Assembly: GCA_039803205.1 (NCBI GenBank) | Contig: JBDRYB010000001.1 | Coordinates: 139,413-203,412 of the forward strand | DNA from: a candidate division WOR-3 bacterium | GTDB lineage: Bacteria > Hydrothermota > Hydrothermia > JBDRYB01 | Reading direction: 5' to 3' | Length of the DNA: 64,000 bases | Made by a program: the position numbers | In this document: positions 9,001 to 24,000 of the stretch, in pieces | Layout of the letters: every line of letters starts with the position of its first letter | Numbering within the stretch: position 1 is the stretch's first letter

Positions 9001-12000
9001 CCGGTTGAGCCCTAGCCTACCTCGTTATAACCAACTTCTTAACCCGCCAGATGTTCCCAGCGCTCAATCTGAGGAAATAGACCCCTGGATTGGATTTTGG
9101 AGAAAGATGTAGCTCGTGTGAACCCGGGCCAAGTTGCCCTGAGAACAACCCTTCGGCGAGCCTTCCATCGGACGAATAGAGGCTTATCTCAACCCGTGAT
9201 TCCTCATGGAGAGTGAGGGAGACCAGGGTGCTACCTCGGCAAGGGTTGGGCTCCGGGCCAAAAAGAACAGGCTCTTGGCGGGCAATCTCCTCGACGCCAG
9301 AGCTCTTTGATTGCATTAGCCTCATCATCCAATCCCCATATGTGTAGTTTGTCCAGCCGAGGTTGCTGAGGAAATACCAGCTCCTGCCATCCGTTGGCGG
9401 ATCGAAATCACACCCCACGCCAGGAGCCTCCGGGGTATCCGGTTGCCAGTGAGCGACGAGCCATATGTCCTGGGTTGATGGGAGATATATGGGCGGGTTT
9501 ATGGAGAACTCAGCCCAATCGCCTATGAAATTGTTTCCGTGCAGGTTGTATGTGATAAAGAGGGGATTGACTGTGTCGGGGAGGCCGCCCAGGTTCCGAC
9601 AAACCATCACATAGTCAAAGGATGTGCATGTGCTCACGAATATCCTGCCTTTTGTTATGTAAAGGGGAGGGCTTATTGTTGGGGTGAAACGGACTGCCAT
9701 CTTGTTGTTGTAGTAGTCAGCAGAGGGGATCATGAACTGATCCACTATGCCCTGGTCGTATATGATCTCGTATGTGACCCTGAAATCCTCCCTCAGTGTG
9801 TCGTTAGTTGGATAGAAGTCCTGGCTCAGGGCCGTTATGAGCTCAGCCGTGTATGTGCCCGTGTCCGACGGGGTCCACTGAGTTGCCAACTGCACCGCCT
9901 TCTGGGAGTCAGGCATGATGGGGGATGTGGTTGTATTGCCCGAATAGACCAAGCTTCCCCCGGGGGCGTAGATGTTGAGCCTCAAGGGTATCCCTTCGGT
10001 ATATGAGCCCTTGTTTCTAACTACAACGATAGGTTGAATGGGTATGTTGACGGAGTTCTCATAGTATGGCCAGAAGACATCCTCAGCCTGGGCATCGTGA
10101 TAACACCTCACATATATGAGAGCGGTGTCATCTCCGCCATAGCTGTCTCCGGATAGCTCGGTCCAGGCGTATGCCTTGTATGTGCCGAAAGCAGGGGGCG
10201 TCCAATTCGGTGAGAATGTTATGTCTATGTAGCCTCCTGGCTGAAGGTTGCTCACGCTTGAGGAGGATTGATATATGTTCTGGCCTCCGGAGCTATCAAT
10301 CTTGAAATACACGGGGAAAGATGCTGGCACATCCCCATAGTTCCTGAACCTTGCCTGGACCGGATACGGATTCCCCAGCTGGGCATACTGGCCCGGGGAA
10401 AGTATCCTCTCACAGCCCACATCGGGCGCTGAAAAAAGAACTATCCAAATCATCATTACCTCCCAAAACTCGCCCATTTTATAAACCGGAATCTGACACG
10501 AAGCTGACACAGCTTGTCCTGTGCCCTCAGAATCTCAGTATCTTCACGCTATAGGTTCCTCCCGGATGCCTTAGTAGGGCTATGAAAACCCCTCCGGTCT
10601 CAGCTTTGGGGGAAAAGCTATAGCTTCCCCCTTCCAGAACGCCATTGTAGATGTTTCGAACGAGCCTACCGCCCGTGTCATAAAGCGAAAGGGTTATCTC
10701 AAGGCTGGATGGCAGAAAGAGGTATAGGCCGTTTCCTTGGGGCCTGAATTCCAAGTTGGGGCGCCCTTTTACTTCACCAGTGCTCAAAACCTGGCCGCAC
10801 TCAGTGTTGTCCCCGGGGTCATCAAGCGCAAAGAAGGAATATCCGCTGGCATCCGGATGGGTTCCGACCACGATCTCGGCGCATCCATCATCATCTATAT
10901 CAGCGGGAACCGGCGAGTGAACATCCTCGGAGATGGGTTTTTTCCAGAGCAGAGAGCCGTCCCCCGCTCTCAAGCAATAAAGGGTATCGGGGTTAGCGCC
11001 CACATTCGGGACCAGGACCTCAAGCCCACCAACCCCATCCACATCAACGAGGGAAAGAGGGCAGTGAACGGGCTTTGCGGTCGTGAATTCCCATATTTTG
11101 ACCCCGTTTCTGTCCAGGCAATAGACCCTCTTGTCATAGCTCGCTGTTATGACCTCAGGGTAACCATCCCCATCGCAATCCCCGATAGCAGAGGAGGTTA
11201 TTATTATGTCGCCGGCTGTGAAGCTCCACTTCTGGGCTCCATCCGAACCCGCCAGGCAATAGAGCTTTCGGTCCTGAGAGCCTATTACAACCTCCACTCC
11301 TCCATCCTTATCCAGATCCGCAATCGCTGGAGAGCCATCAATCTGGCCCGTGGTCGCGAACTCCCACCTCCTTGTCCCGTCTGAGCCCGAAAGGCAATAG
11401 ACCTTACCATCGTAGCTCCCAAAAACGACCTCCATCATCCCGTCCCCATCGCAATCAGCAACGGCCGGGGATGAGCGCACTGAGCCGCCTGACCTGAATC
11501 TCCATTTTTTCGTGCCGTCTCCTGCTCTGAGGCAATAGAGAACGCTGTCCATGCTCCCTATGAGCACTTCAATCTCCCCGTCCCCGTCGCAATCGGCAAG
11601 GGCCGGAGAGGAATGGGTCTCGGCCCCTGGCGTGGTCTCGGATGACCACTGGAGAACGCCGGAAGCGCCATCAATGCAGAGTATGTATCCATAACCCCCG
11701 ACAACCACCTCCATCTGAGGGTCACCATCCAGCTGGGCTATGGCGGAGGATGAGCTCAGCTGAGCGCTATAAACATAGTATTTCCATTCCTCCGCACCTG
11801 TTGTCCCATCAAAGCAATGCAGATACCTGTCGTAGCTCAGGGCGAGAACCTCGGATTTTCCGTCATTGTCAACATCCCCCACAGCGGAGAACTGCCACTC
11901 AACCCAAGCGTTCGTGGGAAACCTCCACTTTACCACGGGTTCCGTGCTCATCGCGCCCTTCATGGTTTGAAGGGAATGGTGAGCTGGCTCTCCTCCCCAC

Positions 12001-21000: not shown

Positions 21001-24000
21001 AAAAAGATGTCTGAGAACGGCCAACAAAGGAGGCTGGGGGGAACAGGCCGCGGGGAAAGAGATTGAAGCACTGCTAACCGAGGATGAAGGCGAGGCCGCG
21101 CTCCGGCTATTTGAGGCCGCCAAAGGCTATTACAGGGTATATCAGAACATAGAGTCGGTCATGGCCGGGCTTCTGGCTAGCTACCTGGCCTGGAAAGTGA
21201 ATCATCCGGTCTTCATGGATGCCATGAGGTTCCTGGGGCCCATGCTCCCGCTTTATCCTGGGTTGAAAAAAGACCCAATAATAGGGGATTTCATGACCAG
21301 GGCAGAGGCTTTTCTTAGAGGAGAACAGAGGAATACCAAAAGGGGAATTAGGGCTTGGCTCATAGGCGACCTGAGAGTGGAGGTGAACGGTTCAGAGCTC
21401 TCCGTAACCAGATGGGGGAGCAAGCAAGCCATGATGGCGTTCATATACCTTCTGCTCTCCCCGAGGCACAGGATCCCCCAGGATCACCTGTTTTACCTTC
21501 TGTGGCCTAAAAAACCGTATACTTCAGAAACAAGAAGCCTGCTTTATCGCGTGATGAGCATCCTGAGAAAGAATCTCAGCGGCTCATTCCTGGTCAAGAG
21601 GGGGGATTTCTATCAGCTTGAGGATGTCTGGACTGATCTTGAAGAGATTGAGGACCTCATCCGAAAGGCCGAGGGGGCTGGTGATCCCCAGAAGACCAAA
21701 GAGCTCCTCTTTCTGGCCGGGGAGCTGGCAAAGGGGGAACTCTTGCCAGAATTTCCCTATGATCCCTATATTGAGGAATACAGGGGTTATTACGAGGGCC
21801 TCAAAAGGAGGATAGCCCGTGGGTCTAGTAAACCGTGAACTTCCTGGTAAGGCAACCCCACCGTGAGCACATCCTCAGGAAATAGACCCCCTGGCTCAGG
21901 CTGGAAACCGGAACCCTGAGCTCATGCCTGCCAGCGCTGGCATAACCCGAAAGGACATCGTAAATCAGCCTCCCTGAGACATCATATATCCTCAGGGTAA
22001 TCTCACCATCTTCCGGAATTGAGTATGAAACTGGAAGGTCCCCGCGGACCGGGTTGAGGGTAACCCTCAGAGATAGCAAGCCCTCTTCCGGAGGGCTCTC
22101 GGCAAGCTCCGTGTAGCGTATCTTCTTGAGGACCCACTCCCCTGGGTCAACCAAAAGGGTCTCTGGCCGGAACTGCACGAGCCAGCTGAAGCGCTCGGCC
22201 CGCTCGTTGACCCAGACCGTATCCCGGAATGTATCCGGCGCGTGAACCATCATTATCTCAACTGGCATGATGAAAACGGGCGCGTTTTGCTGAACCTGAT
22301 TGAGATATAGGTTCACCTCGTATTTGCCCCCTAGATCACGAGCGAACCAGTTGTAATAAAACTCAGGATAGCCTGCTTCGTAGATCCACTCCCGAAAGAA
22401 CCAGTCCAAGGATGAGCCATAAACAGCCTCGGCCTCAGCCTGGAAGTCCGGAATGGTTGCTGTGCCGCCGCCGTAGGCGTTCCGGTAGTTCTTCAGGGTG
22501 GTGAAGAACCCCTGATCCCCCATGACCCATCTGAGCATGTGAAGCACCCACGCGCCCTTCTTGTAGACCGTGTAGCCCCACATGTATTCGGCGGGGGGAT
22601 CGTAAATCGGGAATCTGGCCTGCGCGTCCTCGGAGAAATAAAGGTTCTTGAAGGACCTCATGACGCTGTCGCGCTTCGGAACCCCCCCAATGTGCTCAGC
22701 GTAAAGGGCCTCGCAGTATGAGGCAAAACCCTCGTTCAACCATACATGCGGCCAGTCCTGGCAGGTTACCCAATCCCCCCACCACTGGTGGCTGAGCTCG
22801 TGCGCGTATGTCAGGATATGCCGGCCATCTCCGGTGATCCAGTATGATCCCAAAGCAACCATGGTCTGGTGCTCAAGCGCGAACCCCCCTCCCCAGAGGT
22901 TGCTCTGCGCGTATCCGAACTTCTCGCTCCTGAAAGGGTAATCCCCGAAAACCGAGGAGAAGTAGTCCAGCATGTCAGGAACACTCTGAACATCCGCTCG
23001 CATCTTGTCCTCAAACAGGTTAAACGGGTAATACCACAGCGGCATGCCTTGCCAGGAGTCCGTGAACTTGGCATACTTATCCGAGGCTGAAACAGCAACG
23101 AGGTAATTGGCAATGGGGTAATGGACTGACCAGTAGAAGGTCTTCCAGTCCCCTTGATCATCCACCGAATCAAGGGTCCCATTCGCGGCCAGATCAAATC
23201 CCTTCGGGACCGTGTATGCGAAACGAGCGCTATCCGCCTTGTCTCCGTTGTGGTCGTAACAGGGATACCACTGGTGAGCGTCCTTGACGCCATCAGGGGA
23301 GAGACAGGCCGAGAAGGCGCCCCAATAGTTGAAATAAAGCCCAGCGGTTGGATGGCCGTGGTAAAATACCTCAAGGGTAAAATCCTGCGGAACAGGGCCT
23401 CGGACCCAGACGGTATCATCCCTCCTGGTAAAATCAGCCAACAAGCCGTTGAGCCTGATGCTGTCTATGTTTAGCGCTGAGCCGAGGTGAAAGTCCACAG
23501 AATCAAGGGCTGAAATAGCGCGGCCTTTTATTTCGCCCATACCGAAGATGGTGTCCGGAACGGGGTCCAATGTCAAATAGATCCCGTAAAATCCCACATC
23601 GTAGGAATGGGGAAAAACCTGCGAGAGAAAGGCTAAAAACAATCCGGTCATGGCGATATTCTAAGCTAAAGAGGAGCTCTTCTGCAAGGAGTTTGACCCT
23701 GACTGGGGCAAAACCCTATACTATCCCCGCCATGAAAAGGTTTGCTATTATATCATCCCTGGCAATAGCGGGGACAGGTTGCGGGCTGTTCTATCACAAG
23801 GAAGTAGTGGAGGTTCCCAACCCAGCGGTTCTGACCGATCCCGAAATAGCCAAAGAGGCCTCGGGCGCGAGGCTTGTTTATCAGGACATAGCGACCGCCA
23901 AGACCGAAAAGGGGAAATTTCTCGGCGCAGAGGGCTCTGCCGTGAAGGTTCTCAGCCATGGCACCGAAACAGAGATCAATCCGAGCCAGATGACAAACGC

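Follow-up and report, generated by a model that had tools for sequence, protein, structure and literature searches.

Paralogous SARP-type regulators and candidate private operators at T9SS beta-propeller gene arrays of a WOR-3 bacterium

Introduction

In the 2.3-Mb genome of an uncultured hot-spring bacterium of candidate division WOR-3, a putative regulator gene (P0001, 527 aa, GTG start; 20255..21838, plus strand) is transcribed divergently from an array of genes for secreted beta-propeller proteins. A paralogue (523 aa; 49682..51253, plus strand; found by tblastn) faces a second array in the same window, by which we mean the whole 64,000-nt stretch of DNA analyzed here. Which DNA do such regulators recognize, and how might they act on the genes beside them? 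The genome-wide survey's note had described a family of twenty, each with its own operator of 11-bp-spaced direct repeats. Every countable statement of that note that was re-derived independently held up: the paralogue number, the divergent pairs, the repeats, the regulon maps and the retention of operators in sister species.

Results

Regulators with a C-terminal SARP-type domain

A tblastn search of the genome with P0001 independently recovered the 20-member family as 20 full-length copies (27–45% identity, about 520–610 aa), together with one additional 44-residue regulator fragment at C3:70317-70448. P0001 can be divided into a variable TPR region (residues about 1–220), a conserved middle region (221–350), an OmpR-type winged helix (360–460) and a BTAD stub (461–527). 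On its own P0001 has no Pfam match under E 0.01. Among the 20 paralogues Pfam Trans_reg_C matches eight, TPR_MalT three and AimR one, and a full BTAD is present only in the C2 paralogue; in the other 19 the BTAD is shortened to its first 60 or so residues. The best PDB sequence match, AfsR, is weak (E 0.039), as is the NCBIfam match to AfsR. In contrast, comparison of profiles supports the SARP assignment: hhalign aligns the C-terminal profile of the regulators with the N-terminal SARP domain of an Acidimicrobiales SARP/NB-ARC (AfsR-type) protein at 96.9% probability (E 1.8e-10, 143 columns). Protein language-model neighbors of the regulators bear Trans_reg_C and BTAD as well. Thus, the proposed winged-helix and BTAD homology holds, refined by the shortened BTAD, and so does the reversed domain order, with the SARP domain behind the TPR region rather than in front of it. 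Of the “Rap/MalT-like TPR” only a generic TPR remains.

A C-terminal SARP domain also occurs outside this family. Other WOR-3 families comprise proteins of about 1000–1200 aa with AAA, TPR and C-terminal SARP domains (BTAD at 65 bits in relatives of 1064 aa), and similar repeat promoters adjoin them: the loci of these large regulators carry 18 exact period-11 repeats by a −10 box compared to 0–2 at control periods. In the large relatives a MalT-like TPR region precedes the DNA-binding domain and is itself preceded by a possible STAND-type ATPase (weak Pfam AAA_22 match, E 5e-4, below cut-off).

Positional entropy is highest in residues 1–220 (about 2.0–2.5 bits), while residues 221–340 are conserved in all paralogues and the BTAD stub ranks with the best-conserved segments of the protein. 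We regard the N-terminal region as the probable sensor of a ligand. It is possible, but clearly less probable, that the regulators act as proposed below with no small-molecule sensor; output would then depend either on a protein partner of the TPR and middle region, such as a kinase, an anti-activator or a secretion-stress signal, or on the abundance of the regulator only. Conservation of residues 221–340 would be expected of a common partner, no ligand-binding family was matched in domain searches with the regulators, and TPR domains usually mediate protein–protein contacts, as stated in a passage of the SARP review (PMC10972967). However, the variability of residues 1–220 is a better fit to paralogue-specific inputs, and the possible ATPase before the TPR region of the large relatives also speaks for a gated sensor. 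In MalT and AfsR, modules of this kind act as switches gated by a ligand or nucleotide.

Gene order and the operators of the window

Seventeen of the 20 regulators are divergent from a beta-propeller gene, 13 of these neighbors being assigned by phmmer family membership and the other four (on C30, C16, C3 and C2) by Pfam FG-GAP_3 or DUF5122 matches. The three exceptions are the C4 regulator, which faces a 139-aa gene; that at C1:248900-250474, which is co-directional with and upstream of its own array and has its repeat downstream of the regulator gene; and that at C22:25116-26696, which sits behind another regulator. Both the count and the exceptions agree with the earlier description. SprA is present in the genome, as are 125 T9SS sorting-domain matches, 109 of them above cut-off. 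Weak Pfam matches of the propellers to lambda-carrageenase and rhamnogalacturonan-lyase propellers are the only hint of glycan use.

The promoter of P0001 itself, located by sequence inspection, consists of TTGACC, an 18-nt spacer and TAAAAT (20219..20248, plus strand). Because only 6 nt separate its −10 box from the GTG start codon, and a Shine-Dalgarno site is missing, the transcript is probably leaderless. Three two-gene units, all predicted to be driven by P0001, follow on the minus strand, and a repeat search places an operator before each. Operator 1 (20157..20178) consists of TTTGGAGA (20175-20168), the linker tct and a second TTTGGAGA (20164-20157); 8 nt further lies a −10 box, TAAGAT (20143..20148), with no −35 match. 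Unit 1 encodes an FG-GAP beta-propeller with a T9SS C-terminal sorting domain (18562..20112) and, after a 16-nt gap, another FG-GAP beta-propeller (17020..18546), and ends in a terminator-like hairpin, CCCCGG...CCGGGG followed by a T run (16961..17010). Operator 2 (16923..16941), again TTTGGAGA twice at period 11, is followed after 8 nt by TAAAAT (16914-16909) and leads unit 2, with an FG-GAP beta-propeller bearing a T9SS sorting domain (15373..16881), a DUF5122/delta-60-repeat beta-propeller (13794..15362) and a second terminator-like hairpin (13699..13735) that has GTGAAACGCAC in common with the first. Unit 3 lies behind operator 3 (13648..13666; TTTGGAGA twice, period 11) and its −10 box CATAAT (13641-13636), and contains two FG-GAP beta-propeller genes, 12067..13602 (start 13602 picked by ribosome-binding site) and 10527..12248 (true start probably downstream of 12248).

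The last gene of the array (9017..10456, minus strand) encodes a T9SS-sorted protein in which only the sorting domain is recognized. It lies behind operator 4 (10492..10510, minus strand), which has a different specificity (GTGTCAGC, linker, GTGTCAGA) and matches the operator of the C22:25116-26696 regulator, with TATAAA 8 nt further (10483-10478); this gene would be under the regulator from that other contig. The operator of the second window regulator (49594..49627, minus strand) comprises TGTTCTAG (49627-49620), TGTTCTAG (49616-49609), 9 nt and the −10 box TAAAAT (49599-49594), and leads a five-gene array (41782-49552) that begins with a DUF5122 gene.

In searches of the whole genome, TTTGGAGA-N3-TTTGGAGA is found only at window positions 20175, 16941 and 13666 on the minus strand. 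GTGTCAGA, from the operator of the C22 regulator, is found in the region upstream of that regulator and at three further sites (window 10510, C2:125059 and C8:3972). C38 carries three further copies of the C16 operator, and there are two occurrences of the C14 operator. About 0.03 sites are expected by chance per 8-mer core, and exact operator pairs are restricted to these promoters. The search for exact operators therefore reproduces the regulon maps of the survey's note, including the targets of the C22 regulator on other contigs.

Repeats in place of the −35 box

A period-11 direct repeat beside a −10-like box adjoins 19 of the 20 regulators, as inspection of the adjacent intergenic regions confirmed; an automatic rule (at least 7/8 matches, divergent side only) recovers 15 of the 20, and no adjacent period-11 repeat was seen at the C2 paralogue. 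In the common layout, two 8-bp cores with a 3-bp linker lie about 8 bp ahead of a TATAAT-like −10 box, which is followed by a Shine-Dalgarno site and the ATG. Of 43 operator promoters, 28 have 8 nt and six have 9 nt between the 3′ repeat and the −10 box, and nine have a spacer of another length. Their −35 match is at random level, with 2.14 of 6 positions compared to 2.35 at random positions, whereas 57 regulator promoters score 3.74 of 6 (TTGAnn, 18-nt spacer). According to a study of AfsR (PMC10936776), SARP boxes have an 11-bp period, overlap the −35 and place the 3′ repeat 8 bp from the −10 box, with contacts to the first 8 bp of each repeat. Judged by sequence, the repeat promoters described here have this same anatomy.

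When the whole genome was scanned for 8-mers that recur at a set period next to a −10-like box, period 11 yielded 101 matches and periods that are not multiples of 3 yielded 46–62. Requiring a downstream ribosome-binding site plus an ORF of 100 aa or more left 55 matches at period 11 compared to 9–27 at other periods. The 55 correspond to 40 distinct downstream genes, of which one is a regulator and 24 belong to propeller/CTD families (150 of 2232 ORF-derived genes), compared to 0–5 at other periods; the hypergeometric P of about 3e-19 is overstated because paralogous promoters are not independent. The reported enrichment before propeller genes is hence reproduced. In a second scan 22 of 39 genes were propeller/T9SS genes at period 11, compared to 0–2 of 16–20 at periods 8, 10, 13 and 14.

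It is improbable that the regulators are repressors that sit on the −35 region of propeller promoters and leave upon ligand binding, even though the repeats overlie the expected sigma region 4 site, most of the BTAD is absent and the table of the SARP review contains a few SARP repressors (PMC10972967). These promoters have no −35 box to mask, while those of the regulators themselves do possess one. Moreover, activating SARP and PhoB boxes have the same fixed 8-bp spacing to the −10 box and head-to-tail 11-bp arrangement, and what remains of the BTAD is highly conserved. Activation thus remains the preferred reading.

Operators vary with the recognition helix

The operators differ among paralogues, with about as many types as regulators. 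An operator is common (at least 7/8) to 50–100% of regulator pairs of at least 55% identity compared to 2–5% of pairs below 50%. Variability within the DNA-binding domain is confined to the recognition-helix segment (1.8 bits compared to 0.75–1.1 for its neighbors). Among pairs below 55% identity, helix-3 identity correlates modestly with operator similarity (Spearman 0.13, permutation p 0.011, uncorrected for the five regions tested; ten operator registers set by hand), and no such correlation was found for the wing or the BTAD stub. In 456 residue-by-base tests, five reached p 0.0005 (0.2 expected) and 12 p ≤0.0025 (1.1 expected). Because the related sequences lack independence, all of these P values are overstated.

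Operator retention in sister species was likewise reproduced: TCTTTCAG occurs twice at the G002 orthologue of the C16 regulator (74%) and TGCTCTAG twice at the G001 orthologue of C5:82748 (66%). The core of operator 1 is retained at L020, the one close orthologue of P0001 (68%), which alone proves little because the whole intergenic region is about 70% conserved. Of 37 relatives drawn from metagenomes and sister genomes, 28 have the same promoter.

Least probable of all is that the repeats are real promoter elements read by some other protein (OmpR-type or a sigma factor), their adjacency to regulators reflecting co-duplication of cassettes: the regulator–operator assignment does depend on adjacency, the arrays have clearly expanded by duplication of units including promoter and terminator, and whole-protein identity is not significantly correlated with operator similarity (Spearman 0.05, p 0.22), but operator types about equal the regulators in number, the operator shifts with the recognition helix even within one clade (a six-member cluster has six different operators and different helices), two clades below 55% identity with near-identical helices both use TTGTGAGC, the residue–base covariation falls in the winged helix, and the −10 box is invariant and of the sigma-70 type, while sigma factors do not recognize the −35 as a tandem repeat.

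Discussion

A model for paired regulators and operators

Promoter anatomy, enrichment, SARP homology, the absent −35 box, operator retention at orthologues and residue–base covariation together suggest that the family most likely consists of ligand-sensing class-II activators of T9SS cargo genes, paired with private operators. Each paralogue would be a cytoplasmic one-component activator, expressed from an ordinary −35/−10 promoter as a leaderless mRNA, whose variable N-terminal TPR domain senses a cue and so places activity under ligand control. With a predicted stoichiometry of two head-to-tail protomers, the SARP-type winged helix and short BTAD stub would bind the paired 11-bp repeats, each with 8 specific bp and a 3-bp linker, at a position that replaces the −35 about 8 bp before the sigma-70-type −10 box. 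The bound regulator may recruit or adapt RNA polymerase (class II, “sigma adaptation” as shown for AfsR). The mechanism of activation may differ from that of AfsR, since most of the BTAD is absent in 19 of the 20 and the RNA polymerase contacts of AfsR are made by its SARP domain, of which the BTAD is part, as described in the AfsR study's account of these contacts (PMC10936776). Each operator is predicted to serve a unit of one to five genes that encode beta-propeller proteins secreted by the T9SS, and some regulators may additionally act on promoters of other contigs. We propose that recognition helix and operator were altered jointly in each paralogue, so that the 20 circuits would be largely insulated. 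Twenty sister regulators with their own operators thus represent a natural set of matched regulator–DNA pairs.

Comparison with known systems

Actinobacterial SARPs (AfsR, ActII-ORF4, DnrI, RedD; also EmbR) share with this family the OmpR-type winged helix followed by BTAD helices and, in the AfsR study's description of their promoters, repeats of 11-bp period with 8 specific bp, a 3′ repeat 8 bp from the −10 box and a −35 that is overlapped or replaced (PMC10936776). A passage of the SARP review calls SARPs exclusive to actinobacteria (PMC10972967), whereas the present family belongs to WOR-3. It also differs in that the SARP domain is C-terminal behind TPR instead of N-terminal, the BTAD is reduced to ∼60 residues in 19 of 20 and no NB-ARC ATPase is present, the targets are T9SS cargo genes instead of biosynthetic clusters, and 20 copies with distinct operators occur in a 2.3-Mb genome.

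MalT and other LAL or STAND regulators (ATPase, TPR sensor, C-terminal DNA-binding domain) likewise place the sensor first and the DNA-binding domain last, a likeness extended by the TPR_MalT matches and the large WOR-3 relatives. In contrast to these, the window family has no ATPase and carries a SARP-type DNA-binding domain instead of a LuxR-type helix-turn-helix. At the pho box, a head-to-tail dimer of the PhoB winged helix occupies a pair of direct repeats (11-bp period) in place of the −35, with a normal −10 adjoining. The direct-repeat layout is thus a textbook likeness to OmpR/PhoB response regulators, but the present family has TPR input in place of a receiver domain or phosphorylation site, and BTAD-type helices after the winged helix. 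In Bacteroides polysaccharide utilization loci, dedicated sensor-regulators are hybrid two-component systems and ECF sigma/anti-sigma pairs. The WOR-3 loci may be seen as an analogous arrangement, in which each cassette for paralogous surface or secreted proteins has a regulator of its own and the whole is multiplied many times within a genome, though built from unrelated proteins and, as it appears, from cytoplasmic one-component regulators.

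A divergent regulator beside an array of predicted secreted beta-propellers

Seven minus-strand genes lie between 9017 and 20112 of the window, and a divergent plus-strand gene (20255–21838) encodes the 527-aa regulator P0001. Five of the seven code for FG-GAP/ACSF4-type beta-propellers, one for a DUF5122 (delta-60 repeat) propeller and one for a protein with a T9SS sorting domain only; the FG-GAP genes share 43–54% identity with one another. The type A sorting domain TIGR04183 (Por_Secre_tail) scores above the NCBIfam cut-off at the C-termini of 9017–10456, 15373–16881 and 18562–20112; four of the seven genes do not exceed it on their own. 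Genome-wide there are 125 sorting-domain matches, 109 of them above the cut-off, and the translocon protein SprA is encoded as well (396.6 bits; cut-off 200). With a C-terminal sorting domain and a translocon in the genome, the putative target genes fit T9SS type A cargo.

The array is flanked on one side by a gene for a MoxR-type AAA+ ATPase (7954–9015, plus strand) and on the other by an M1-family peptidase gene (21825–23651, minus strand) which has its own T9SS sorting domain and is convergent with the P0001 gene, the two 3′ ends overlapping by 14 nt.

An exact search of the genome for operator pairs, i.e., tandem direct repeats in which an 8-bp core recurs every 11 bp, found them confined to repeat promoters of the kind described below. 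The P0001 operator, TTTGGAGA-N3-TTTGGAGA, occurs at three sites, all in the window array (20175, 16941, and 13666, minus strand), where it heads three two-gene units (18562–20112 with 17020–18546, 15373–16881 with 13794–15362, and 12067–13602 with 10527–12248). Two of these three units are closed by terminator-like hairpins, at 16961–17010 and 13699–13735 (minus strand) after the second gene of the first and second unit, respectively. Both hairpins contain the 11-nt motif GTGAAACGCAC, which is absent elsewhere in the genome. Evidently the array expanded as entire units were duplicated, each comprising a promoter, a gene pair, and a terminator.

Ahead of the final gene in the array stands a different operator, GTGTCAGC/GTGTCAGA (at 10510), which is that of another regulator of the same genome (C22:25116–26696) and also precedes genes on contigs C2 and C8. 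Our search thus recovered the reach of this regulator onto other contigs that the genome-wide survey's note had proposed. A second paralogue inside the window (49682–51253) has its own repeat, TGTTCTAG, which is present twice ahead of a five-gene array.

Operator promoters resemble SARP target promoters

At 19 of the 20 paralogue loci we observe the same layout toward the propeller gene, the exception being the paralogue on contig C2; this agrees with the 19 adjacent 11-bp-period repeats counted in the survey. The operator consists of two copies of the 8-bp core (three at one locus) with a 3-bp, mostly T-rich linker, giving a period of 11. Taken over the whole family (43 clear operators), the core is approximately (G/T)(C/T)(T/G)T-N-A-G-N. 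A spacer of 8 nt (28/43 promoters) or 9 nt (6/43) separates the 3′ repeat from a TATAAT-like −10 box, which is followed by a leader of 25–40 nt, GGAGG, and the start codon. At the −35 position these promoters match the consensus at random level (2.14/6 compared to 2.35/6 in random DNA), while the regulators' own promoters have TTGAnn at an 18-nt spacer (3.74/6).

According to the promoter description in PMC10936776, SARP targets carry direct repeats with a period of 11 bp whose 3′ repeat lies 8 bp from the −10 box; the protein contacts the first 8 bp of each repeat, and the box overlaps the −35 element. Judged by sequence, the pattern seen here matches this description almost to the letter. 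Repeats at 11 (or 22) bp are allowed for SARP promoters, and in sequence the repeats, the 8-bp distance, and the absence of a −35 box are all in place.

To quantify the repeats, both strands of the whole genome were scanned for 8-mers that recur (at least 7/8) with a given period next to a −10-like box. This gave 101 hits at period 11 compared to 46–62 at periods not divisible by three, and 55 compared to 9–27 when a ribosome-binding site and a downstream ORF were required. The period-11 hits precede 40 distinct genes, of which 24 belong to the propeller/CTD (beta-propeller and T9SS sorting-domain) families and one is a regulator; other periods gave 0–5. These families comprise 150 of 2232 ORF-derived genes, with genes called from ORFs by a crude rule and membership assigned by phmmer with seven seeds. 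Several of the remaining 15 genes do carry a known operator and are cut by a contig end or fall outside the family definition. A second scan yielded 22/39 at period 11 versus 0–2 of 16–20 at control periods. Since promoters that arose by duplication do not count as independent, the corresponding P values (~1e-17 to 1e-19) are overstated; the contrast between periods stands apart from them. The enrichment before propeller and regulator genes reported in the survey is thereby upheld. A generic scan for sigma-70 promoters and terminators performed much as on shuffled sequence (12 promoter-like sites compared to 9.5 ± 3.6), with P0001's own promoter among the sites picked out.

In the regulators' own promoters, a TAnAAT box ends 6 nt (40/57) or 7 nt (11/57) before the ATG or GTG (loci L001–L017 and L020–L080; in the window at 20243–20257). 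A Shine-Dalgarno site was found in none of the 57 regulators, whereas the target genes have GGAGG. Because of this short distance and the missing Shine-Dalgarno site, the regulator mRNAs are probably leaderless.

Two further elements were seen around operator 1 in the window. A period-10 repeat, CAAGGTGAAA / CAAGGGGAAA, lies between the operator and the −35 box of the P0001 gene (20189–20208, plus strand), and a short block, GGC(C)GTGAAC, is located in the 5′ leader just past the −10 box (20127–20137, minus strand). The same block is found in leaders on contig C14, at L020 (the locus of a 68% orthologue of P0001), and at L045, under propeller promoters with different operators. Rfam detected no family over window positions 8500–22500, so that the conserved leaders do not represent a known riboswitch.

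A TPR protein with a C-terminal SARP-type domain

The 20-member family described in the survey was recovered in full by tblastn, with 20 full-length paralogues and one short remnant in the 2.3-Mb, 50-contig genome. Regulators make up ~1% of genes and their target families ~7%. Full-length copies were found in only three of 272 phylum genomes searched, all three from one genus. When 1.84 billion cluster representatives were scanned exhaustively, only 33 clusters matched at E ≤1e-30 and 47 at ≤1e-10. Beyond these, only residues ~360–520 find matches, and the matching stretch is N- or C-terminal in proteins of ~1000–1300 aa. One homologue is annotated as an AfsR/SARP family regulator. A profile search of genome contigs, from which near relatives of the window's genome were excluded, gave two distant actinobacterial SARP proteins only; one of them (L018) has the canonical order by Pfam (BTAD 130–233, NB-ARC 261–451) and served as canonical SARP for comparison.

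P0001 alone has no Pfam match below E 0.01, and the domain assignment draws on the whole family. The N-terminal part is a TPR region: TPR_2 is detected in 18/20 paralogues, and the family profile matches TPR structures of the LGN/Pins type. No ATPase family was matched by Pfam in any of the 20 paralogues. The C-terminal 170 residues form a domain of the SARP (Streptomyces antibiotic regulatory protein) type. Pfam Trans_reg_C is found in 8/20 paralogues (best E 1.8e-4), AfsR is the top PDB match of the C-terminal profile (E 0.039), and the language-model neighbours of the regulator bear Trans_reg_C and BTAD. In hhalign, the C-terminal profile aligns with the N-terminal 321 residues of a SARP/NB-ARC protein from Acidimicrobiales, which Pfam resolves into BTAD and NB-ARC in the canonical order (96.9% probability, E 1.8e-10, 143 columns). 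The domain is thus predicted to be an OmpR-type winged-helix DNA-binding domain, as is required of a SARP.

Its setting differs from that of a SARP in two respects. The winged helix lies at residues ~360–460 of 527, behind the TPR region and not at the N-terminus. A complete BTAD (~145 aa) directly after the winged helix is lacking in 19/20 paralogues, which stop ~60 residues in; the part retained aligns with the BTAD start in hhalign. The full domain is found only in the C2 paralogue (48.9 bits; cut-off 22.1). By entropy per segment, the recognition-helix segment is the sole variable stretch of the DNA-binding domain. Conservation within the protein is highest in helix 2, the wing, and the BTAD stub. 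The TPR region (residues 1–220) is variable and the middle region (221–340) conserved.

The C2 paralogue (L017 2980–4809; C2:136632–138461) is the most divergent one, with 609 aa and 26% identity. It is divergent from a propeller gene and the sole paralogue with a complete BTAD as well as the sole one without a recognisable repeat operator; it may represent an older form of the family. Signs of decay are seen on contig C3, where an operator promoter (L015 3170–3290; C3:57909–58029) now drives a 14-codon ORF only, with a 300-nt gap to the next propeller gene. A further promoter carrying this operator is adjacent to what is left of a regulator, 44 residues of its C-terminus (C3:70314–70451).

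Proposed pairing of regulators and operators

To follow regulators together with their operators, we compiled the complete regulators for which upstream DNA was available, 57 in total (20 in this genome, 37 in sister genomes and metagenome contigs); 43 have a clear operator. Depending on the identity bin, 50–100% of regulator pairs with at least 55% identity share their operator (at least 7/8), compared to 2–5% of pairs below 50%. The 68% orthologue of P0001 at L020 retains TGGAGA in both repeats, although this pair alone would be weak evidence of operator retention, the whole intergenic region being ~70% conserved. Greater weight attaches to the variability of the recognition-helix segment noted above and to the comparisons of clades, helices, and residues that follow. 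Six regulators that form a clade (linked at ≥55% identity) have six different operators, and their recognition helices also differ. Two clades less than 55% identical have near-identical helices, and both carry TTGTGAGC.

In pairs less than 55% identical, operator similarity is correlated with identity in helix 3 (Spearman 0.13, permutation p 0.011) but not with identity in the wing or the stub. Residue-by-base tests over 29 lineages gave 5/456 combinations at p 0.0005 and 12 at p ≤0.0025 (expected 0.2 and 1.1), with positions 388–390, 419, 429, and 435 leading; these pairing tests are exploratory, with ten registers set by hand and the kinship of the sequences ignored. Whole-protein identity is not significantly correlated with operator similarity over all 903 pairs (Spearman 0.05, p 0.22), a null result like that of the Mantel test in the survey. 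The pairing signal takes the form of a threshold, from 55% identity upward, and otherwise shows in the winged helix alone.

Proposed activation from a −10 box alone

We propose that two regulator protomers would bind head-to-tail on the repeat pair and replace the −35 contact of sigma region 4, so that a promoter having a −10 box alone could be activated. For the AfsR SARP domain, the structural account in PMC10936776 shows activation of this type. In our model, the variable TPR region (1–220) would set the input, and the middle region (221–340) together with the stub would provide functions common to all paralogues.

The same repeats could in principle serve a repressor; based on the missing −35 box and the geometry, we infer activation instead. 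A peptide-sensing regulator of the RRNPP type (Rap, NprR, PlcR, AimR) was considered and rejected; Pfam AimR is matched in one of the 20 paralogues (E 7.8e-4). Of the defining features of these systems, a TPR sensor with an N-terminal HTH is lacking, the DNA-binding domain being C-terminal and of winged-helix type. An adjacent peptide gene is lacking at the window locus, where the 14-nt overlap with the convergent peptidase gene means that no co-directional gene could fit downstream. We also rejected ECF sigma factors as readers of the variable promoter element, since that element is duplicated in tandem and the −10 box is sigma-70-like without variation.

Taking the SARP-like activator as the preferred reading, one can envisage a wider scenario, which we offer as speculation and think rather unlikely to hold as a whole. 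The regulators would be naturally evolved, mutually orthogonal activator-operator pairs in which a few residues in and around the recognition helix (e.g., reference positions 388–390, 429, and 435) spell the 8-bp operator. Each divergent TPR would sense a different external cue, making the system an address system with which a WOR-3 bacterium of small genome size chooses among ~150 secreted beta-propellers for display, and SARP-type "sigma adaptation" would be ancient and phylum-spanning, not an actinobacterial speciality.

The main interest lies in the matched regulator-operator set and in what it says about a minimal SARP. Genome and relatives hold dozens of fixed-register regulator-operator pairs (43 clear operators, 29 lineages), rare raw material for decoding DNA recognition or engineering orthogonal switches. 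The reversed order and the mostly lost BTAD bear on which SARP parts are truly needed for activation. Moreover, candidate division WOR-3 gains an initial regulatory map that can be put to the test, and the inducer of each regulator would offer a route to the function of the T9SS-secreted propellers.

Comparison with known systems

A keyword search of literature listings found no paper on T9SS or type IX secretion in WOR-3 and none on SARP-type regulators outside actinobacteria. In its working mode the family would resemble class II activators of the SARP/PhoB type, and its DNA-binding domain is homologous to SARP domains. It departs from the textbook SARP in the non-N-terminal position of this domain, in its incomplete BTAD, and in its range: a review (PMC10972967) describes SARPs as confined to actinobacteria, whereas the source names of the homologues all read "candidate division WOR-3 bacterium". 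The SARP promoter logic of tandem 11-bp repeats, 8 bp from the −10 box and with no −35 box, would thus extend far beyond actinobacteria, into an uncultured phylum. Regulators of the STAND/MalT type have a P-loop NTPase (NOD) module before the TPR sensor, for which the 20 paralogues give no Pfam match.

Proteins of ~1064 aa from other WOR-3 families end in the same C-terminal domain, with the winged helix and a complete BTAD placed behind a TPR region like that of MalT; a weak AAA_22 match (E 5e-4, residues 38–158) lies in front. The reversed domain order noted in the survey is therefore real but not confined to the window's family. At 23 loci (122 kb) with such large AAA-TPR-SARP regulators, exact repeats next to a −10 box number 18 at period 11, compared to 1, 1, 0, and 2 at control periods 8, 10, 13, and 14, respectively. 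The period-11 repeats typically come right after the regulator gene, ahead of a gene for T9SS cargo or another gene.

At one locus of another WOR-3 family (L071, genome G138), TTTTCACA-N3-TTTTCACA with a −10 box (6540–6615 and 3200–3270) is found before a downstream T9SS-cargo gene and also upstream of the 1064-aa TPR-SARP regulator (weak AAA_22 match) itself. Behind the upstream copy lies a possible ORF of 23 codons, an arrangement that could reflect autoregulation or a small peptide gene; the regulator starts 5 nt after a TTGACA-16-TATAGT promoter.

Since period-11 repeat promoters are present at the loci of the large WOR-3 regulators, this type of regulator seems to span the phylum, and the window's family seems to be a shorter variant of it that expanded in one genus.
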